Part shown: piece by piece, positions 25,881 through 39,371 of the stretch
Position numbering within the stretch: position 1 is the stretch's first letter
Layout: every line of letters begins with the position of its first letter
DNA from: a bacterium
GTDB taxonomy: Bacteria > UBA8248
Direction: 5' to 3'
Length of the DNA stretch: 64,000 nucleotides
Assembly (NCBI GenBank): GCA_965203325.1
Contig: OZ241875.1
Location: 1,536,001 to 1,600,000, forward strand
Position numbers and translations under genes: made by a program
Notes under the pieces: generated by a model
Told to the model about the DNA's origin: nothing
Seen by the model: only the letters and a program-made list of their open reading frames with translations
The model's database searches: none

Positions 25881-26999
25881 TTACGCCGCGGTACGCTCTC
25901 GCTCGATCATCTCCTTGATTCGGGGAATCAGGTCGCGCGCGGCGCGGTGGCATTCCTCCACGTGGGGGTAGCCCGAGAGGATGAACTCATCGATGCCCAA
26001 TCGCCAGTAGCCGAGAAGCTCCTCCGCAATTTGCTGGGGCGTTCCCACGAGCGCGGAGCCGCAGTTCACCCGCACCTGGGAGATGCCGTTCCAAAGATGC
26101 GGCCCGACCCGGAAATCCTCGAACGCGCGCGCCTGTGCGGCGGCGCCGACCATGCTCGTGCCGGCCACCAGCGCGCCGCGCTGCGCCTTCACGGTATCCT
26201 CCGCGCGGCTGAGCAACTCGCGCGTCTCATCCCAGGCATCTTCTTCAGTGTCGCGCATTACCAAGTGGGAGCGCACGCCGAAGACGGGCGTCCGCCCCGC
26301 CTCGGCGAAAGAGGCCCGTGCGCGCTCAAGGTGCTTTCGGGTCTCCTCCACCGGCCCTATCCAACCGAGGTAAACGTCCGACTGCGTTCCCGCGAGCTTG
26401 AGTGCGGCGGGCGATGCGCCGCCGAGATAGAACTGGGGCGTCTCTCCCGCCGGGCCGGGCGAGCAGTGCACATCGCTCAGCTTCACGAACTTCCCGTCGA
26501 AGCTGACGGGCTCGGGTTTTTCCCATAGCTTGCGGATGGCGGCTATGAACTCCTCCGCGCGTTCGTAGCGCGTATCGTGGTCGATCCGCTCGCCCATCTT
26601 CTCGAACTCGCCCTTGATGCCGCCGGGCACGACGTTCAGGTCCACGCGCCCGCCCGTAATCTGGCTGAGCGTGGCCGCCATCTGCGCGAACAGGCCGGGG
26701 TTCACGAAGCCGGGGCGCACGGCGATGAGAAAACGTATCTTCTCGCTCCGCGCGGCCAGCGCCGTCACCATCGTCCAGGTCTCCGCCAGGGGGGCGCCCT
26801 GGTCGAAAAGCCCGTTGGCAAAGCGCGTGGGGATGAGCATGGAGTAGAAGCCGTTCTCCTCCGCCGCCTTCACCACCTCGCTCAGGTATTCAAACGTGGG
26901 CGGACGCTCGGCCCGCAGCGTGCCGATGTGCGCGCCGTCACCGTCGATCGGAATGAACCAGTCGAAGCGCGGCGCCGGACGTTCGTGATTGTTGGCCAT
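25881..26999 (-). CDS. LLM-class monooxygenase, alkanesulfonate monooxygenase (SsuD)-like
   Basis: Motifs WFIP.DGDG, FLIAVRPG, YLGGAS, ALVGTP and FILSGYPH.EE. Confidence 0.85.
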   Translation of the reverse strand: MANNHERPAPRFDWFIPIDGDGAHIGTLRAERPPTFEYLSEVVKAAEENGFYSMLIPTRFANGLFDQGAPLAETWTMVTALAARSEKIRFLIAVRPGFVNPGLFAQMAATLSQITGGRVDLNVVPGGIKGEFEKMGERIDHDTRYERAEEFIAAIRKLWEKPEPVSFDGKFVKLSDVHCSPGPAGETPQFYLGGASPAALKLAGTQSDVYLGWIGPVEETRKHLERARASFAEAGRTPVFGVRSHLVMRDTEEDAWDETRELLSRAEDTVKAQRGALVAGTSMVGAAAQARAFEDFRVGPHLWNGISQVRVNCGSALVGTPQQIAEELLGYWRLGIDEFILSGYPHVEECHRAARDLIPRIKEMIERERTAA

Positions 27000-27122
27000 G
27001 CGGAATACTCCCCTGCGTTTTCAGTATGAAATTCCGGCGATTCTATTACAGAAGCAGGGGGCTTGAAAGGCGGTGGCGCTCCGCAATTCCAGTCACTTCC
27101 GAACCTGCCATTTCTTCATACA

Positions 27123-27149
27123 GCAGGGCGGTTCGCGAACCACCCCTGC
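27123..27149. repeat. Single GTAG-family REP variant
   Basis: GCAGGGCGGTTCGCGAACCACCCCTGC resembles the REP at 10065-10088. Confidence 0.6.
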
Positions 27150-27286
27150 CAAAGGGGGATATCCGTAAAGAATGGAGAACGAGAAACAGGCTGCTTATGA
27201 TGCCCTTTTGACTTTTCGGTCCAAAATCGCTAGTCTCCGTGTAGAGGACCCGTACTCTTTCTTACTCACCGGAGGCGGGGGGAACC

Positions 27287-27736
27287 ATGCAAAAACTCTT
27301 CGATCATTTCAAAACCAACGCCGGCGTATGGACGTTCGGGCTATTCATGGCCGCGATAGCGGGCGGCATCTATCAATTCACGGTATTCATGGTCAGCGCC
27401 CAGGTCACGCCCGTCAGCGAGCGCGTCGATGCGGAAGTCAAGAGGCTCGACGCGGCGGATGGGAACACGAACATCAGAATCGCCGATTTCAAGGAGCACA
27501 TGGACGAGCGTTTCGACGAATTGAAGAGAGGCGTGGGTGACCTCAAAGAAGATGTAAAGCGCAACAGGGAGCGAATCGATCTTCTCGACAAAAAAATCGA
27601 GAGGAAAATAGAATTCCTGGATCGGAAAATAAGCCGTTTGGATGCGAAAATCGACAAGAAATTCGACCTGCTGGATGCGAAAATGGACGAGAAGTTCAAC
27701 CTCATCCTGCTGAGGCTCCCGCCGCTCAAGAAATAG
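27287..27736 (+). CDS. Membrane-anchored coiled-coil repeat protein (Bdr/DUF1640-like)
   Basis: N-terminal hydrophobic segment followed by LDxKI/LDAKM repeats; GGAGG upstream. Confidence 0.65.
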   Translation: MQKLFDHFKTNAGVWTFGLFMAAIAGGIYQFTVFMVSAQVTPVSERVDAEVKRLDAADGNTNIRIADFKEHMDERFDELKRGVGDLKEDVKRNRERIDLLDKKIERKIEFLDRKISRLDAKIDKKFDLLDAKMDEKFNLILLRLPPLKK

Positions 27737-27789
27737 TTTTCAGATATCGGTCTATGAGCGCTCACGCTCGAATACCCGCCGCATAACCC

Positions 27790-28422
27790 TCAAGCCAGCG
27801 TTTCGCCGAGCGCCGCCAGTTCATCGAGCGCATCCCTGGCGAAGGAACTCTGGAAGACGGCCTCCGCTGCAGCCCCCGGATAGACGGCCCACAGCGCGTC
27901 CTTATCGCAGAACAAGATGGTGGTGAGAGGCCGCAAAACGATCGCGCCTACAGTTTCGTGCACGTCGGGCCGGTTGATCCACCTGCGGAACGAGGCTTCG
28001 CAGTCCGCCGCAAGTGTGAGTTCTGAATCCCAGAGCGGATCGCCCGAATAGAAGTTCTGAAGATTCGGGCCGGCGAATTCATTCTCAAGATATGCGCGCT
28101 CAAGCGGCTGGAGGCTTTCCGCTTTCTTGTGGATTCTGAACGAATGAGACGCCGCGCAGGCGACGCCTATCCGCATCGTGGCGGGGCTTTGGCGAGATTG
28201 CGCGCGATACTCGAACCACACGCTCTTGCCCGAATAGCGGCCCCGCAAATGGCCGCCTTCGAGATGCGACGTTCCCGCATCCAGAATTTCTGCCAGCGGC
28301 TTCATCCGGCGGGCGAGCCACACGTCGCGGAAGAAGACGTAATAGACGACTGCGCCGAGAACCACCGCCAGGGCGAGGAGGCTCGGTCCGTCCAAATGCA
28401 CTCCAAAAAGCGACAAACCCAT
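27790..28422 (-). CDS. Hypothetical membrane protein
   Basis: 210-aa ORF with an N-terminal TM helix. Confidence 0.6.
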   Translation of the reverse strand: MGLSLFGVHLDGPSLLALAVVLGAVVYYVFFRDVWLARRMKPLAEILDAGTSHLEGGHLRGRYSGKSVWFEYRAQSRQSPATMRIGVACAASHSFRIHKKAESLQPLERAYLENEFAGPNLQNFYSGDPLWDSELTLAADCEASFRRWINRPDVHETVGAIVLRPLTTILFCDKDALWAVYPGAAAEAVFQSSFARDALDELAALGETLA

Positions 28423-28493
28423 AGGCTCAAAACCTTTTGGTGAACCATCTCACAAGTCTACAAACCATCTTTGAGAATCCTACGCTCCGCGAG

Positions 28494-28521
28494 TCTGGAT
28501 TCCGGCTTTCGCCGGAATGAC
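28494..28521. repeat. Palindromic GATTCCGG..CCGGAATGAC (dRS3-like) repeat
   Basis: TCTGGATTCCGGCTTTCGCCGGAATGAC; related GTCATTCCG units at ~10109, ~11860 and ~41503. Confidence 0.6.
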
Positions 28522-28547
28522 GATGAGAAAAACATTCCCGCAAGAGT

Positions 28548-30896
28548 CTATTCAGCATCACTAAACCTTACTTTTCCTCCGCTAGATTCAACAGCTTCGA
28601 TTATGATCTTCCGTATCTCGGACAGAAACTTTCTTGACAGCGGGGGCATCACAGCTTCGGGAAGCGGTGCCGTCTCGTCATAGATATTGCGGATATCACG
28701 GGTTCGCAGGCGTGTGGAACCCCTGCCGCGACGATCATAGGCAGTCCGCCAATCTTCAAGATGTTCTTTGATCAAACGTCGATGAGCCAAACCATCTATA
28801 GCCCCGGATACTCTTTCCCGCACACTTTCGATCGCCGCTTGCCTCTCTCTTTCATCCCCCTCATTCTTGAGTTCACGAGTCCAACTGGTCGGCTGGTCCA
28901 GAAACCGCGAAATGGATTCAGTCAATCGATCACTCAGATCCGCAACGGGACGAAGTTCAACATATTCGACGTTGAGTTCGTCCGCGATGCGTCGATTGAG
29001 AGCTTTGATACTAGCCCAGTGTGCCTTATTTGTTCCTTCGTAACTGCCGAACCCAAGTATAGCCAGCCAACGATTCTGAAATTTCTCAACCGCTTCTCTC
29101 ACAGCAAGAGCAATGCCGTCTGTGTCGTAGACAGGACAGGCTTCGGACAATGGCGTTGGTGAGATAGCTTGCTCACAGAATTGGGTCAGTCTCTTCATTT
29201 CTTCTTGCACGAAATTGTTTGCCGCTGGAGGTAACTTGGAAAGTTTCTTATCGACGCCGCCGAGTATGAAACATCGGCCGTCAATTTCCTGTTCCATGCT
29301 TCTGGCGACTGGTTCACTTAGAATGTCCATGTCCCTCAAGCTGGATAGAGCATTCCGGACTGAATCCATAACATGGTTCCGCTTGTCGCTGAATGTTCGA
29401 AGATTTTGCCCCTTTATCTGATCAAAGTGAGTAAAAGCGATTGCGGTTTTGCTGTTGTGGCCACGAGTGGCAACAGCGCGGAGCACTGAAAGAGGAGCAG
29501 CCTGCATCGGCTGCTGAGCATTGTCTACGAGGAGAATGACGTCTGCTTGGTTAAACCGCTCGGTGATATGAGTGGGGACACTAGAGGAAGAATCCGCCGT
29601 ATGCCCCAAGCCTTGTCCGTCTATGAGTACTAGTTTTGGTGTATCGTTGGAAAAGTCTGGAAACAAAGGCCCTTTAACGCGAATCCCCTCTACGAGGGGT
29701 GTCAACAATCGACCAAAATCCCGCCAAAAATTGCTGGAGAACCAGCGGATATTGCGAATGAATTCATCCCGGTCTTCTGTGTTGAACAACCAAAATATGG
29801 GCCACCCCTCCGAGGAATGCCGACATATCTCTCCCGCTTTCAAAAGGTCGAACCGCGCCCGGAGCGCATCCAACACATTATGGACAAGCGCATAATAATG
29901 ATCGTCATTGCTGATGTAGGTGTCGAGTTCTTCTTCGATTAACTGCTTCGCTGCATCACGGTCGGGGTTAGCAGGATTATCGAAATCAACGCCGAGGTCG
30001 GCTGATAATCGTTCGCGGGCTCTCTTTGTCAACTGCAAGATCTGATCGATGAACCCTTCAAGAACGTCCCGGTTTTCGGCTCTTTCACCATCCGTGAGAC
30101 CCGTTTCTTCATTAGTGTTTGGGCTCACGCTCACATCTTCCTCATAATCGAAAGAAAACTCATCTTCTTCACTGTGCTGTTCAGTGGCCTCTCGCCATCC
30201 CCCGAGAACATAGCTGAGACGGAATTTTTGGTCGCGATGATTCAGGAAGCGTTCGGCTATTTTGTCTCTGAGAGCACCTTCGTACGCAGCAAGACAGGCA
30301 TCAATGATGCATTCTTCTACGTTCGCTTGAACCTGAAACTCGGTAAAGAATGTAACGACAGCCTCAAAACTGCCCTCTGCCTGCACGACTTCGATGTCGG
30401 CAATCGTAGTCTTGTTAGGGGCTGTTGACGGGAACCGGTCATTATCGGGGTCCGATCCGATAAGTTGCCTTAGCAGCGAAGTCTTTCCGGCCCCGGTCGT
30501 CCCAACGAATAAAACGCGTGAATAGCCATCTTCCTTTCTAGGAAGTGGGATGTGGACTTCTCGCAGGTCTCCCGGCTTGGATCGCCCGGCTTGGATCGCA
30601 TCATAGAATGCGTTGACAATGACCTTTGAGAAGCGTTGCTCCGCTTCGGGACGTTTGGTGCTGTTCCACCAGGATCGGTCAGAAAGAATCGTATTCATTT
30701 CAGCAACTAGACTATCCGCCTCGATTTCGTTTTCCGTCCCCAGACCACGACGCATTTTGAGACCCGTCTTCCCTTTGGCGTCCTTTCGGAGGGGATGACG
30801 AAAGCTGATTGACCATCCTGGACGATTCGTGCGTGATTTCGAGGCGGTATAGGTTCGGTCAGGCGCGTCATTGTTTTTTGCCACTTTTCTCACCAT
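28548..30896 (-). CDS. Dynamin-like P-loop GTPase with N-terminal basic domain; candidate defence protein
   Basis: G1 GTTGAGKTS, G2-like TT, G3 IDGQG split from G1 by a long helical insert, G4 THFD; helical C-terminus; visibly lower GC than neighbours. Confidence 0.75.
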   Translation of the reverse strand: MVRKVAKNNDAPDRTYTASKSRTNRPGWSISFRHPLRKDAKGKTGLKMRRGLGTENEIEADSLVAEMNTILSDRSWWNSTKRPEAEQRFSKVIVNAFYDAIQAGRSKPGDLREVHIPLPRKEDGYSRVLFVGTTGAGKTSLLRQLIGSDPDNDRFPSTAPNKTTIADIEVVQAEGSFEAVVTFFTEFQVQANVEECIIDACLAAYEGALRDKIAERFLNHRDQKFRLSYVLGGWREATEQHSEEDEFSFDYEEDVSVSPNTNEETGLTDGERAENRDVLEGFIDQILQLTKRARERLSADLGVDFDNPANPDRDAAKQLIEEELDTYISNDDHYYALVHNVLDALRARFDLLKAGEICRHSSEGWPIFWLFNTEDRDEFIRNIRWFSSNFWRDFGRLLTPLVEGIRVKGPLFPDFSNDTPKLVLIDGQGLGHTADSSSSVPTHITERFNQADVILLVDNAQQPMQAAPLSVLRAVATRGHNSKTAIAFTHFDQIKGQNLRTFSDKRNHVMDSVRNALSSLRDMDILSEPVARSMEQEIDGRCFILGGVDKKLSKLPPAANNFVQEEMKRLTQFCEQAISPTPLSEACPVYDTDGIALAVREAVEKFQNRWLAILGFGSYEGTNKAHWASIKALNRRIADELNVEYVELRPVADLSDRLTESISRFLDQPTSWTRELKNEGDERERQAAIESVRERVSGAIDGLAHRRLIKEHLEDWRTAYDRRGRGSTRLRTRDIRNIYDETAPLPEAVMPPLSRKFLSEIRKIIIEAVESSGGKVRFSDAE

Positions 30897-30921
30897 TCAA
30901 TCCTCCTAATGAATGTATCCC

Positions 30922-31006
30922 GAAACAACAATGCGTTGTTCCTTGTTGTGGCAATATATGACGAACGCAGGATTTTGTCAAGAATTTTAGTACAACTCGG
31001 AACAAC
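30922..31006 (-). promoter_or_regulatory. sigma70 promoter bracketed by inverted operator-like repeats
   Basis: TTGACA (30981-30976)-N17-TATATT (30958-30953); inverted repeat GTTGTTCCttGTTGT (30935-30949) / ACAACtcGGAACAAC (30992-31006). Confidence 0.7.
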
Positions 31007-31077
31007 ATTTTTAGAATAAATTAAAGAGTAAGTTCATCTCACCAAAAAACAACCCCACCAACCATCCGTGTATGACT

Positions 31078-31581
31078 CTATGAAAGACCCTCCTGCGCAT
31101 CCCGCCAGGCGGGGCGGCTGCCGGGGAACATGTCCGAATCGTGGAACACCTCGATGCGGTTGCCGTCGGGGTCCAGGAAATATATGCCTTCGTGTCCGCC
31201 CCAGAGGCCGTTGCTCGCATCGAGGCGCAAGGGGCCCCAGACGACCTCGATGTCGGGGCGCGAGCGGATGTAGGCCACCGCGTCGTCGAACGCTTGCTGG
31301 TCGGCCACCTCGAACGCGAGGTGGTGCAGGCCTACGTCGCGGCGCGGCACGGTGTCCTCGCCTTCTTCTTCCACCCAGTCTTCGGGCACGCTGAATATCG
31401 CCAGTTGGTGGTGGTAGTCATCCAGATACATGAACGCCGAGCCGAACGGCGCCGCCGGGTGGCTGCCCGCCTCGTGGCGCGAGCGCAGCTTGAAGCCCAG
31501 GACTTCGGAATAGAACTTGATGGCGCGATCCAGATCGCGCACCTTGATGCCCATGTGCTGCAGGCGGATGGAGCGAATCAT
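31078..31581 (-). CDS. VOC (glyoxalase/extradiol dioxygenase) family protein
   Basis: Motifs LQHMGIKVRD, GLHHLAFEV and IYFLDPDGNRIE. Confidence 0.9.
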   Translation of the reverse strand: MIRSIRLQHMGIKVRDLDRAIKFYSEVLGFKLRSRHEAGSHPAAPFGSAFMYLDDYHHQLAIFSVPEDWVEEEGEDTVPRRDVGLHHLAFEVADQQAFDDAVAYIRSRPDIEVVWGPLRLDASNGLWGGHEGIYFLDPDGNRIEVFHDSDMFPGSRPAWRDAQEGLS

Positions 31582-31806
31582 CGAAGGCCTCCCGAGAGTA
31601 TGACCCGATAAGCGAAAGCAGCTCAGCGTTTGGTTCGAGGATACGCGATCCGCCCGCCGGCGTCATCGCCCGGACAGTCCCCTCATGGCCGATCCCCCGC
31701 CGCCCTTGCCGAGATGGCCCAAGTGGAGTATTCCATGAGGGCACGGGAACCCATATCGGTCGATTCCGCAATTTCAGATGTTTTTCCTCGCATGGAGGTC
31801 TTCGCC

Positions 31807-32592
31807 TTGCCCATCATCACGAACGAGACGAAAAGAAAATCCTACGCCGGAGAGGTCACCCTGGGCGCGGGCGTGCGCATGGCGCGAACGGTGGAGGTCG
31901 GCCTCGCCATGAAGGCCGCCGGCTTCGACTGGCTCTTCATCGATCTCGAACACGGACCCTTCGATCTGGAAACCGCACAGCAGATATCCATCGCCGCCCT
32001 GACACAAGGGATCACGCCGCTCGTGCGCGTGGCGTCGCTCGACCCGCACCTGAGCACGCGGATTCTGGACTCAGGCGCGCAGGGCATCGTCCTGCCGCAC
32101 GTGAACAACGCGCAAGAGGCCGAGGAATTCGTCAAAATCTGCAAATTCCCGCCCGAGGGCGGACGCAGCGCGGGCGGGGGGCTGGCCCACGGCCGCTTCG
32201 AGGCCATGGACCCGATGGCGCTTCTGAGCGGCATCAACGACGAGACGCTGCTCGTCGCCATGATCGAGACGCCCGAAGCAGGCGATGAGGCGGACGCCAT
32301 CGCCGCCGTGGAGGGAATCGACGTGCTGCTCATCGGCACGAACGACCTGAGCCTGGGGATGGGCATCGTCGGCCAGCACGACCACCCCAAAGTCAACAAG
32401 GTGTATGACCAGGTGAACGCCGCCTGTCAGAAACACGGCAAGATAGCCGGCATGGGCGGGTCCTATGATCCCAGGATGATCGAGCGCAGAATCAAGGAGG
32501 GGATGCGCTTCATCCTCTCGGGCAGCGACCTGAACTTCATGAGCGCCGGCGCCAAGGCCCAGGCGGACATGATTCGAGAACTCGCGGGTTGA
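31807..32592 (+). CDS. HpcH/HpaI class II aldolase
   Basis: TTG start after GGAGG; motifs GFDWLFIDLEH, MIETPEA and IGTNDLS. Confidence 0.9.
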   Translation: MPIITNETKRKSYAGEVTLGAGVRMARTVEVGLAMKAAGFDWLFIDLEHGPFDLETAQQISIAALTQGITPLVRVASLDPHLSTRILDSGAQGIVLPHVNNAQEAEEFVKICKFPPEGGRSAGGGLAHGRFEAMDPMALLSGINDETLLVAMIETPEAGDEADAIAAVEGIDVLLIGTNDLSLGMGIVGQHDHPKVNKVYDQVNAACQKHGKIAGMGGSYDPRMIERRIKEGMRFILSGSDLNFMSAGAKAQADMIRELAG

Positions 32593-36976: not shown

Positions 36977-38412
36977 TCAGGAATTGATAGCCCGCAAATC
37001 GCCTAAAATCTTCTCCGCCGCATCACCCGCAGATTTCACGCAATCGGGAATCCCGACGCCCCGGTAGGCGTTGCCGGCGAGAGCGAGACCCGGCGTTGCG
37101 CTCAGTCCATCCTCTATTCTGCCCACTTTCTCCAGGTGGCCCACCAGATAATGCGGCAGGGATTCCTCGTAGCGATAAAAGACTTTTCCTTCGGGTTCTC
37201 CCGAAATCCCCAGAATCGGGCGAAGCTCCTCGATCAGCTTGCGAGTCAACTCCTCATCCGTGAGCCCGGCCCGGGAGGCGGCCTCGCCTCCGGCGAAGGC
37301 GCGGATGAGCACCTTGCCCTCGGGCGCTCTGCCCGCGAACTTGGTGCTCGAAAACGAACACGCGAGGAGCGTCTTGTTCTCTATCGCCGGTACGACGAAA
37401 CCCATGGCGTGGAGCGGATTCGCCACCTGCTCGGCCCGGTAGACGAGGTTGAGCGTCGCCAGAGAGCCGCTCGGGATGCTCATCAACTCTGCCGAAATAC
37501 CGGGCGCGGCTTTCTCCAGCATCCGCGCCGCAGCACTTGGCGGCAGGGTGACGCAGACTGCATCGGCATCTATCTCCTCTCCGTCCTCAAGACGAACGCG
37601 CCAGCTTTTTCGTTTCTTTCGAGTGATTCCGCCCGGCATCCCGTCCGAACCATAGCGCCTGAAATCTTCTCCGCCAGCGCGTCCGCCAGGGCGTCCATTC
37701 CACGCTCGAAACTCACGAACAGGCCGTACCTCGGCCCGCTCGCCGAGACGCCCTCGCCAGTTCCTCGCTTTTGCATCCGCTTCCTGAGTCCCAGGATGAG
37801 GCTCCTGTGCTCTCGCTCTATCTCGTGAAACTGCGGCATGGTGGCTTTCAGGCTCAAATGTTCGGGGTCTGCCGAATAGATGCCCGCCACCATGGGCTGC
37901 GCCATTCTTTCCAACGCCTCGCGCCCGAAGCGCCTGCGCACGAAATCGGCCAGGGATTCATCCGCATCCCCACGCCTTCCGGGCAGGAGTACGTCCATCG
38001 CCATCCGGAGCTTGCCGAGCGGGCTGAAGACGGGACTCATCAAGAACGGACCGATTTGGTATGGCGCGAGAAGGTAATATCCCTGGGGCACGGGGAGCAG
38101 TTCGTCGCCCCGCAGGACGAAGCTGCGGCGATGGCGCTCGTTCGTGCCGATGAGTTGACTTCCGAGCCCCAGTTCCTCGCAGAGTTCGACGCCTTCGGGC
38201 TTAGATGCGAGAAAGCAGTCCGGGCCTTTTTCCATCAGGACACCGTCTGAGAACTCGGTCTCGATGACGCCGCCGAGCCGGGAAGACGCCTCGATGAGAT
38301 GAATATCCAGAGAGAGATTCTGCGCCTTCGAGGCCTCAAGGAGCCGGTAACAGGCCACAAGCCCCGTAACGCCTCCGCCAAGCACGACCACCCGCCGGGT
38401 TTTTGCGGTCAA
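36977..38412 (-). CDS. hemY: HemY-type protoporphyrinogen/coproporphyrinogen oxidase, split by a frameshift near 37606-37610
   Basis: N-part has VVVLGGGVTGL, RLGGVI and EKGPDCF; C-part in another frame has GFVVP, FSSTKFAGRAP and AGNAYRGVGIPDC. The frames switch at an A5 run. Confidence 0.85.
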
Positions 38413-39371
38413 CTTCCGCTCTCCGCCATCTTCGCGCGCACCAACTCGGAGAGCATCCCGATAAAGGCGGGGTGCGTGCCCACCGTGGGCGCACGGTAGA
38501 AGCGAAGCCCCGCCGCTTCGGCCGCTTCGCGCGCCTCGATGTCCAAGTCGAAGAGCACCTCCACGTGATCGCATATGAAACCGACCGGGACCACCAGGAC
38601 GGCCTTTGCGCCACCGGCGGCGACGCTTCCGATCACCTCCGTCACGTCCGGGCCGAGCCAGGTGCCGGGAGGAACGTCCGGGCTGCTCTGAAAGCCGACC
38701 TCGTAGCTCTCAAGACCCAGTTTTTGCGCCGCGAGAGCCGCCGTTTCCCGGAATTCCTCCTCATAAGAAGAGGCCTTGGCCATGGAAACGGGTATGGAGT
38801 GGGCCGTAAAGATGACTCTCGCCACATCCGGGCCGTCCTCTTCGGGGAGGGCCTGCCTCATCCGATCGACGACGGCGTCGATGAAGCCCGGATGCTCGTG
38901 CCAGGGTTTTTCGAGAAATTCGACTTCGGGCGCATCTTCGCCCAACTCCTCGCGCGCTGTGGCGACGGCGCCCCGATAAGCCTCCCAGCTTATTTTCGTG
39001 CGATGAGGGGCCAATATGACGCCCAGCGCGCGCCTGAGTCCGCGCCCCCCCATCTCGGCCAGCGTCTCTTCCACGTAAGGCGTCCAGAAGCGATGGCCGG
39101 TATAGACGGGAACGCCCGCACCCGCTTGTTCGAGCGCCATCTCGAGCGCGCCCGCCTGTTTCTGGGAGAAAAACGTGAAGGGCGATACGCCGCCGAAGTA
39201 TTCATAGTGCGCGGCCACCTCCCGGATGCGCTCGGGGCCGCCCGACCTCTGGCCCACGATGCCCTCCACGTAGCAATACGCCTCGCCCGGACATTCCTCG
39301 TAGCGGCGGCAGCAGCCCCGCGTGGGGCCGCCGAAGCCGATCATGATGATGGAATCGAACTTGTCCTTCAT
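38409..39371 (-). CDS. hemH: Ferrochelatase (HemH/CpfC)
   Basis: Motifs GGVSP, FTAHSIP, WLGPD and GFICDHVEVLFDLD. Confidence 0.93.
   Translation of the reverse strand: MKDKFDSIIMIGFGGPTRGCCRRYEECPGEAYCYVEGIVGQRSGGPERIREVAAHYEYFGGVSPFTFFSQKQAGALEMALEQAGAGVPVYTGHRFWTPYVEETLAEMGGRGLRRALGVILAPHRTKISWEAYRGAVATAREELGEDAPEVEFLEKPWHEHPGFIDAVVDRMRQALPEEDGPDVARVIFTAHSIPVSMAKASSYEEEFRETAALAAQKLGLESYEVGFQSSPDVPPGTWLGPDVTEVIGSVAAGGAKAVLVVPVGFICDHVEVLFDLDIEAREAAEAAGLRFYRAPTVGTHPAFIGMLSELVRAKMAESGS

Follow-up and report, generated by a model that had tools for sequence, protein, structure and literature searches.

A horizontally acquired one-gene cassette encodes a predicted dynamin-like GTPase with putative operator sites and is a candidate for a new defence system

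In a stretch of 64,000 nucleotides from a bacterium of the lineage UBA8248 (positions 1,536,001 to 1,600,000 of contig OZ241875.1; hereafter the window), we analysed a gene that stands alone within an insertion and that encodes a predicted dynamin-like GTPase of 782 amino acids, behind a promoter bracketed by four short putative operator sites. The source genome, termed G000, comprises 4.39 Mb and holds a single copy of this gene. Our results make it a good candidate for a novel single-gene system of defence, and we rate as slightly better than even the reading that this self-contained cassette, with its autorepressing dynamin-like GTPase, is a defence gene against phages or other mobile elements. 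The features on which the analysis turns are collected in Table 1.

An earlier note on this DNA, made from its letters, had described an open reading frame (ORF) of this length with reduced guanine-plus-cytosine (GC) content. Both observations hold, as the GC fraction is 0.49-0.51 over positions 28500-31000, against 0.58-0.69 in the flanks and 0.604 genome-wide, that is, about 50% in the gene and about 60% in the genome. The motifs singled out in that note were likewise all found in the protein, namely, WSISFRHP at residue 28, KMRRGLGTENEIEADSLVAEMN at 47, the G1 motif GTTGAGKTS at 132, the G3 motif DGQG at 426, the G4 motif THFD at 489 and HWASIKALNRR at 626. In an alignment of 91 family members, G132, G137, K138, T164, D426 and G429 are invariant, while T489, H490 and D492 are conserved in at least 90% of the sequences; these motifs are therefore real and under selection, rather than chance matches. 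The G4 motif (489-492) has a histidine in the usual lysine position, and the Walker B segment reads LVLIDGQG. An insert of about 290 residues between G1 and G3 had also been claimed. The spacing from the G1 lysine to the G3 aspartate is indeed 288 residues, but it does not consist of one simple insert: the conserved switch-I threonine T164 and two strands (167-183) come first, and are followed by a helical insertion at about 186-350 (about 165 residues), which has a net charge of -23 and a disordered acidic loop at 242-254.

An AlphaFold2 model of the whole protein, built on the alignment of 91 sequences, reached a predicted local distance difference test (pLDDT) of 91 and a predicted template modelling score (pTM) of 0.91. 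It places the sheet and helix of the N-terminal domain at residues 18-72, further helices up to about 115, the G domain from 126 to about 582, and a helical tail at 592-771. A Foldseek search with the full model returned 26 matches at E<=1e-3, all of them from the dynamin superfamily, headed by the Campylobacter dynamin-like protein (DLP) 5oxf (4.7e-6); MxA and MxB were among the structural matches. Alignment with VIA-align gave Z scores of 16.2 for MFN1, 16.1 for MFN2, 15.7 for Fzo1, 15.4 for 5oxf, 15.0 for SynDLP, 14.5 for IniA, 13.5 for EHD2 and 12.8 for BDLP, within an overall range of 12.5-16.2 for the dynamin superfamily over 220-390 aligned residues; the generic GTPases Toc34 and EF2 scored about 11.5. 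No hydrophobic, paddle-like or transmembrane stretch was found in the protein, the best 19-residue Kyte-Doolittle mean being 0.92, and its tail is highly charged. The prediction of a G-domain homodimer (two copies of residues 119-585) had a score of 0.02 and a mark of 0.42, which counts neither way. The protein is thus, as modelled, a soluble predicted GTPase whose G domain and stalk are closest to those of mitofusins and bacterial dynamin-like proteins. Since every top structural match of the model belongs to the dynamin superfamily, the dynamin-like identity proposed in the earlier note is upheld, and we assign the protein to this superfamily with little doubt, on the basis of its motifs and predicted fold and not of a curated profile.

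Table 1. Predicted features of the cassette, in window coordinates.
Feature	Position	Strand	Remarks
Inserted one-gene cassette, 2,697 bp	28393..31089	.	Replaces 13-22 bp present at the same site in relatives
ORF of 782 aa, predicted DNA-binding dynamin-like GTPase (P0001)	28548..30896	-	ATG start
Basic N-terminal domain, codons 1-118, net charge +9	30543..30896	-	Strands 18-22, 28-38 and 44-51, helix 57-72, helices 79-103
GTPase domain, codons 119-585	29142..30542	-	G1 132-140, T164, G3 426-429, G4 489-492
Helical stalk-like tail, codons 586-782, with conserved HWASIKALNRR	28551..29141	-	From alignment and model; no hydrophobic segment
Predicted sigma-70-type promoter, TTGACA-17-TATATT	30953..30981	-	11/12 matches; same TTGAC element at the same place in relatives
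Upstream putative site pair, GTTGTTCC, 2 nt, GTTGTACT (10-bp register)	30989..31006	-	7 nt before the -35 element
Downstream putative site pair, GCCACAAC, 2 nt, GGAACAAC	30935..30952	-	Follows the -10 element directly; orientation opposite to that of the upstream pair
Extra inverted copy of the site, GTTGTTTC	30922..30929	-	With the preceding site, forms a small palindrome before the ribosome-binding site
Hairpin-forming repeat, 11 bp past the stop codon	28494..28537	.	Multi-copy element of the genus

The regulatory part of the hypothesis comes from the DNA in front of the gene, where four 8-bp sites with the consensus GGAACAAC form two tandem pairs of opposite orientation on either side of the promoter. 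We compared this arrangement across 80 homologue loci taken from species-representative genomes (L001-L080), of which L001-L052 encode the full-length form. A strict pattern, consisting of a site, 2 nt, a site, 6-9 nt, TTGAC, and then again a site, 2 nt and a site, fits 32 of 43 upstream regions, that of the window included. With a looser definition of the site, the promoter is flanked by sites on either side in 43 of the 52 full-length loci, 28 of which have two plus two. None of the remaining 28 loci has sites on both sides, and one has a single site; in 25 of these loci the match to the query does not begin before residue 84, so without the N-terminal domain, and bracketing sites are found in none of the 25. 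Elsewhere in the locus DNA (1.2 Mb), sites occur at a background density of 0.34 per kb, and the 4.39-Mb genome holds only two same-strand site pairs at a spacing of 9-11 bp, one of which is this promoter. The design recurs across at least six phyla, in Alpha- and Gammaproteobacteria, Acidobacteriota, Nitrospirota, Verrucomicrobiota, Chloroflexota and an actinomycete metagenome-assembled genome. In many relatives the downstream pair includes the Shine-Dalgarno-like sequence GAGGAA and ends 3 nt before the ATG.

Because the sites co-occur with the N-terminal domain and occupy the positions of a repressor's targets, we infer that the domain binds the sites and that the protein represses itself. 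It is likely, then, that the N-terminal domain autoregulates the gene through the four putative sites, which agrees with the autoregulated DNA binder suggested previously: the conserved sites around the promoter occur only where the domain occurs. As the two pairs flank the -35 and -10 elements in inverted arrangement, an oligomer of the protein would be expected to occupy or loop its own promoter.

What kind of domain this is was approached by fold and by profile. According to the model, its three strands and helix have the topology of integrase arm-binding and AP2 domains. The match to the N-terminal domain of lambda Int (1z1b/2wcc) has a Z score of 4.2 and a root-mean-square deviation of 2.3 A over 51 residues, which is within the noise range for small domains, and AP2 domains score 3.6-4.3. 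At the level of profiles, none of 43 N-terminal domains matches any Pfam Arm-DNA-bind family, and hhalign against 23 Arm-DNA-bind_3 domains from G000 and its relatives gave a probability of 0.09% (E 0.58). The integrase-arm-like N-terminus of the earlier note therefore stands at most as a resemblance of the modelled fold and not as a similarity of profile. We conclude that the likeness, as modelled, concerns the shape and the type of target (tandem direct repeats, which are putative here), with no demonstrable homology. Weak sub-threshold matches to DUF6538, a domain that may stand at the head of integrases, occur in 11 of the 43 domains (best E 0.018); a genome search with DUF6538 gave one above-threshold match, in a 126-aa ORF, which did not reveal to what the family is attached. 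As a separate observation, the integrase arm-binding domain Arm-DNA-bind_3 is matched 21 times in G000; several of these matches are adjacent and form pairs, with about 1.2 kb between the two members, like those of mobile elements with multiple recombinases (for instance C1:971742/972934, 1220022/1221209, 2553680/2554861, 3278799/3280052 and 3830968/3832149).

The horizontal acquisition proposed in the earlier note is well founded, since the insertion is missing at the same site in congeners; moreover, only one of the order's 44 genomes yielded the protein, and the other 22 congeners that were searched yielded none. In a DNA search of 20 relatives, 12 congeners among them, the flanks of the insertion (25881-28392 and 31087-32592) lie only 11-22 bp apart in eight of the 12 congeners (G002, G003, G004, G007 and G009-G012). 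The stop codon of a glyoxalase gene abuts the start of a 210-aa ORF in these empty-site genomes, so that the cassette split a gene pair and altered both gene ends. This 210-aa ORF (27790-28422), downstream of the GTPase gene, was considered as a possible partner; it is kept in congeners without the cassette and is thus no part of it. At the insertion site we found no integrase, transposase or tRNA gene, and neither terminal repeats nor a duplicated target were seen for the insertion in the window; a 9-nt match in inverted orientation, close to its two ends, is probably due to chance. The hairpin behind the stop codon, which lies inside the insertion and may be a terminator, has the core TTCCGGC-GAAA-GCCGGAA within about 44 nt. 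Many matches to it, of 28-44 nt and 84-100% identity, occur in G000 and its congeners, so it looks like a genus-wide element of the repetitive extragenic palindromic type.

Filled and empty forms of the locus were also found side by side in public sequencing runs, although such runs may include the genome's own sample and are not independent of the assembly. Two runs (X1 and X2) contain 83-96% of the sampled words of the stretch, and both filled and empty contigs were recovered from each. The filled contigs span the insert without a difference (28498-31146), at a depth of 8.7 in X1 and 6-8 in X2. In the empty contig, with a depth of 13.1 in X1 and 19.7 in X2, position 28392 is joined to 31090 with 14 other letters between; over all four runs (X1-X4), the empty contigs lead from 28389/28392 to 31089-31097 across 13-21 other letters, and X3 and X4 have the empty form only. 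The left side of the empty contig (493 nt) is identical to the window in X1 and has four differences in X2, while on the right side 7 of 57 positions differ from the window in X1 and X2 alike. The filled form of the locus thus coexists with variants that lack the cassette. Words of the hairpin repeat reach depths between the thousands and the tens of thousands in each of the runs X1-X4.

Other loci give a hint of how the cassette may enter a genome. Beside groEL in a Bradyrhizobium genome, an insertion of about 4.6-5 kb contains the gene, at a place where two relatives have some 460-490 bp. In six loci the gene is flanked by direct repeats of local DNA (86-557 bp, 79-95% identity): 557 bp of the 3' part of groEL in this Bradyrhizobium locus (L035, 95% identity), 271 bp of the 3' part of dcd in L002 (86% identity), and 86-180 bp in L016, L028, L049 and L011. 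Such repeats would be the expected trace of a single-crossover insertion of a circle that carries foreign homology. Together with the one-sided divergence of the alleles, namely a divergent right side and a left side identical in X1, they give a lead towards entry by recombination through flanking homology brought from a previous host, rather than through a dedicated recombinase. The filled and empty alleles in natural samples would then make it possible to trace the transfer of a single gene that needs no recombinase.

The family to which the protein belongs is large, spans many phyla and has no name. Among 8,000 scored candidates, 2,059 reach E<=1e-3; the best 120 relatives are 59-76% identical and almost all 760-770 aa long, and 1,235 representatives match in a library clustered at 50% identity. 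In their sources these relatives are called 'hypothetical protein' and once 'predicted GTPase', and the homologues found on 12 plasmids are all annotated as hypothetical or lack annotation. No family of Pfam, NCBIfam or PADLOC-DB v2.0.0 was reached by the protein, which has sub-threshold P-loop matches at residues of about 126-177, among them Pfam AAA_22 (23 bits), PADLOC mad8 as the best PADLOC match (E 1.9e-4, residues 127-177) and PADLOC LeoA (E 0.014). That no named system could be assigned is in keeping with what had been stated before. An identity as SrfC/Virul_Fac, for which a protein-atlas score of 0.92 had been obtained, was dropped, there being no PF10139 match at E<=1.

To our knowledge, bacterial dynamin-like GTPases in defence are represented by one two-gene system, which we take to be the one called Eleos, and by the housekeeping DynA. 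The two-gene system, which is related to LeoA/LeoBC, adjoins defence systems in 60% of cases and protects Bacillus subtilis against jumbo phages, a protection that P-loop mutants lose (Millman et al., 2022, 10.1101/2022.05.11.491447, as far as the consulted part of that preprint goes). It resembles the present family in that both are dynamin-like GTPases found in defence islands. However, two genes are described there, whereas here we find one gene, in one copy per genome and with no conserved partner; and the consulted part of the preprint describes neither a DNA-binding domain nor an operator, both of which we infer here. As the LeoA model matches 25 residues only (126-150) and the gene is single, we do not place it in that system. 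With regard to DynA, cells lacking this protein were seen to lyse efficiently upon phage infection (PMC8844932, in the portion consulted), while the present protein differs from it by the lack of a membrane segment and by its accessory nature.

The large G1-G4 domain followed by helical bundles is shared with bacterial dynamin-like proteins and mitofusins (Campylobacter DLP1/2, 5oxf; SynDLP, 9em9/7zw6; IniA, 6j72; Nostoc BDLP, 2j69; MFN1/2; Fzo1). Unlike these, the present protein has the helical insertion in the G domain, a G4 of the form THxD and an N-terminal domain of DNA-binding type; it is encoded by a mobile accessory gene, it stays below all Pfam thresholds, and the membrane paddle or transmembrane segment of the BDLP and mitofusin class is absent from it. 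With Mx proteins, judging from the parts of the sources consulted, it shares the condition of a soluble dynamin-superfamily GTPase, an immune role (presumed here) and an action without a separate enzymatic effector, which is a feature of Mx. Mx proteins are induced by interferon, whereas the gene studied here appears to control its own promoter, and no sign of common descent was seen below the level of the superfamily. Tyrosine-integrase arm domains (lambda Int; Arm-DNA-bind_3) have a sheet packed on a helix, a topology that the modelled N-terminal domain recalls, and short tandem direct repeats as targets, like the putative ones of the present protein, but here no recombinase domain follows and there is no sequence relationship. 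For another group of TRAFAC-class GTPases, DO-GTPase-GAP1, a switch function in anti-invader systems has been predicted (Kaur et al., 2020, PMC7159879); the portion of that paper seen here gives as its marks a Walker B glutamate, a GAP1 partner, often a second paralogue, and N-terminal zinc ribbons. Our protein was not assigned to it, given its Walker B, the lack of a conserved partner (GAP1 itself was not profile-searched) and the lack of a zinc ribbon. The consulted part of one further survey excludes single-gene systems from its scope (PMC13069673). In the literature covered we found no description of a DNA-binding, self-regulated single-gene dynamin-like defence protein, although supplementary tables could list the family among untested candidates.

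For its biological role we turned to the neighbours of the 80 homologues, defined as the two nearest longest-ORF calls (>=100 aa) on each side; 279 of 285 were scanned with Pfam, the six dropped being one ORF with coordinates out of range and five very long ones. No neighbour family is common to more than 10 of the 80 loci, which confirms the stand-alone character ascribed to the gene. A defence-type Pfam domain lies within two ORFs in 22 loci: CBASS SMODS with S_4TM, type I restriction-modification, DarT with NADAR (DarTG), AbiEi/AbiEii, TIR_2, BrxA and GmrSD, and further XhoI, MrcB_N/NOV_C, Z1, Schlafen, PIN toxins, HEPN-NTase, Cas1, reverse transcriptase and MORC-like ATPases. In 19 loci the neighbours include a transposase, IstB, TniQ, recombinase, integrase, relaxase or phage-head gene, and six loci (L034, L037-L039, L041 and L046) adjoin phage head genes. 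Taken together, 38 of the 80 loci have a neighbour of the defence or the mobile class. On plasmids, the Caballeronia copy adjoins a pair of patatin and nucleotidyltransferase genes, an antitoxin and TniQ; the Azospirillum copy adjoins DUF3883, a helicase, DUF4258 and a GIY-YIG nuclease; and the Bradyrhizobium copy lies among metabolic genes. Of 46 full-length loci, 40 have a gene of lower GC content than its flanks, the median difference being -5 points. Since the neighbour count has no matched control, the defence context is suggestive only, and we put a role in defence against phages or other mobile DNA, inferred from these neighbours, at around an even chance or a little above it.

Two groups of homologues have a gene in front of them. 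In seven Acidimicrobiia loci whose homologues lack the N-terminal domain (L063, L065, L069, L071, L073, L075 and L080), there is, about 90 bp upstream on the same strand, a conserved gene whose product of 305-367 aa matches nothing in Pfam; six of eight such ORFs compared are 50-89% identical, and the product may be a partner that replaces the N-terminal domain. A DUF4352-containing gene lies upstream of homologues of the Actinomadura/Spirillospora type (L053, L056, L061 and L077).

The following mechanism can be proposed. The cassette consists of its own promoter, putative operator, gene and hairpin, and the N-terminal domain most likely binds the four sites, the two members of each pair being one helical turn apart. 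An oligomer of the protein, by occupying or looping the promoter, may keep its own level low. If the gene is indeed a defence gene, infection would then release or induce the protein, and GTP-driven self-assembly, as in Mx and other dynamin-like proteins, might block the invader or the infected cell. As no effector module is recognisable, this last step is a guess. It is tempting to speculate further, although we consider this rather doubtful, that the family corresponds, in prokaryotes, to the Mx-type antiviral GTPases and carries its own guard circuit, in which a repressor parked on four sites is pulled off or overproduced at infection, polymerises on the DNA or particles of the invader without a separate enzyme, and spreads as a naked one-gene unit by homology-driven insertion. 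The flanking duplications of target genes and the presence of filled and empty alleles in one sample point towards such a mode of spread.

Several points weigh against defence by an autorepressing GTPase. The evidence on the family is computational throughout. Neither a defence nor a mobile neighbour is found in 42 of the 80 loci; moreover, the families were sorted into 'defence' and 'mobile' by the analyst, on crude ORF calls and with no matched control, and both flanks of the gene in the window are metabolic genes. The 782-aa protein has no recognisable nuclease, toxin or membrane-active module, its Pfam Dynamin_N match reaches 22.0 bits against a cut-off of 27 and covers residues 128-150 only (the P-loop), and no match to the GTPase family was found in 50,697 phage records. 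As for the regulatory part, nine of the 52 full-length loci have no sites as defined, and three Rhodococcus loci (L055, L066 and L067) keep a diverged N-terminal domain while the defined sites are absent; L066 and L067 have a different palindrome upstream. With the N-terminal domain alone, Foldseek gave nothing at E<=1e-3, and the best fold match of this domain, with a Z score of 6.2, is to enolase-superfamily capping domains, above the score for lambda Int. We take these capping domains to be unrelated, as instances of a common small alpha+beta arrangement.

Among the other explanations, it is unlikely, albeit worth stating, that the gene is a selfish or competition gene of mobile elements, which might exclude rival plasmids or prophages or stabilise its carrier, with autoregulation limiting the cost. 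Copies on conjugative and mobilisable plasmids, neighbouring relaxases, recombinases and transposases, the location inside phage head modules and the sporadic distribution within the clade all speak for it; yet in the window and in many other loci the gene is alone in the chromosome with no surrounding element, and defence genes are equally common neighbours. The two readings overlap in practice. Considerably less probable is a function in DNA organisation or segregation, whereby the GTPase would load on tandem sites, as in a partition system with a centromere-operator or as with CrfC, a clamp-binding dynamin-like protein of Escherichia coli. The tandem direct repeats beside the gene do resemble centromere or operator sites, and the protein has no membrane-binding segment. 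However, most copies are single chromosomal genes in unrelated contexts with no partner gene, the sites bracket the -35 and -10 elements as those of a repressor would, and there is only one other site pair in the genome.

Marginally less probable still is a dynamin for membrane remodelling or repair, like DynA of B. subtilis or BDLP of Nostoc, in which the N-terminal domain would be regulatory and nothing else. The nearest solved folds are indeed membrane-fusion or tethering proteins, and the phage-induced lysis of cells without DynA, in the part of the report consulted, fits such a role; this has to be set against the highly charged tail, the lack of a hydrophobic or paddle-like stretch and the occurrence of the gene as an accessory in one of 44 genomes of the order, which is not the pattern of a housekeeping gene. 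The least probable of these explanations, to which we give very little credence, is that the protein is one part of a multi-gene system with partners nearby. The genes that precede the Acidimicrobiia homologues and the four Actinomadura-type homologues would favour it, but for the full-length form no neighbour cluster exceeds 10 of the 80 loci, and the insertion in the window contains this single gene only. Defence by a self-contained, autorepressing GTPase is thus the reading that we retain. It has a clear and testable regulatory design, with one protein, four 8-bp sites and one promoter. Should the gene protect against phages, it would provide a compact single-gene model of a mechanochemical GTPase that senses and blocks an invader, as well as an example of a defence effector that acts as its own repressor.

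Two minor observations concern other parts of the window. A flavin amine oxidase gene at 36977-38574 (minus strand) is divided between two overlapping ORFs, of 220 aa (the C-terminal half, profile positions 235-443) and 334 aa (the N-terminal half, positions 2-233), probably owing to a frameshift or an assembly error. In addition, a 149-aa ORF at 27287-27736 (plus strand), with weak matches to DUF5798 and apolipoprotein, combines a hydrophobic stretch at the N-terminus with a charged, repetitive tail, the latter encoded by three 31-nt direct repeats (27585-27702), and its DNA is kept in most of the congeners searched.

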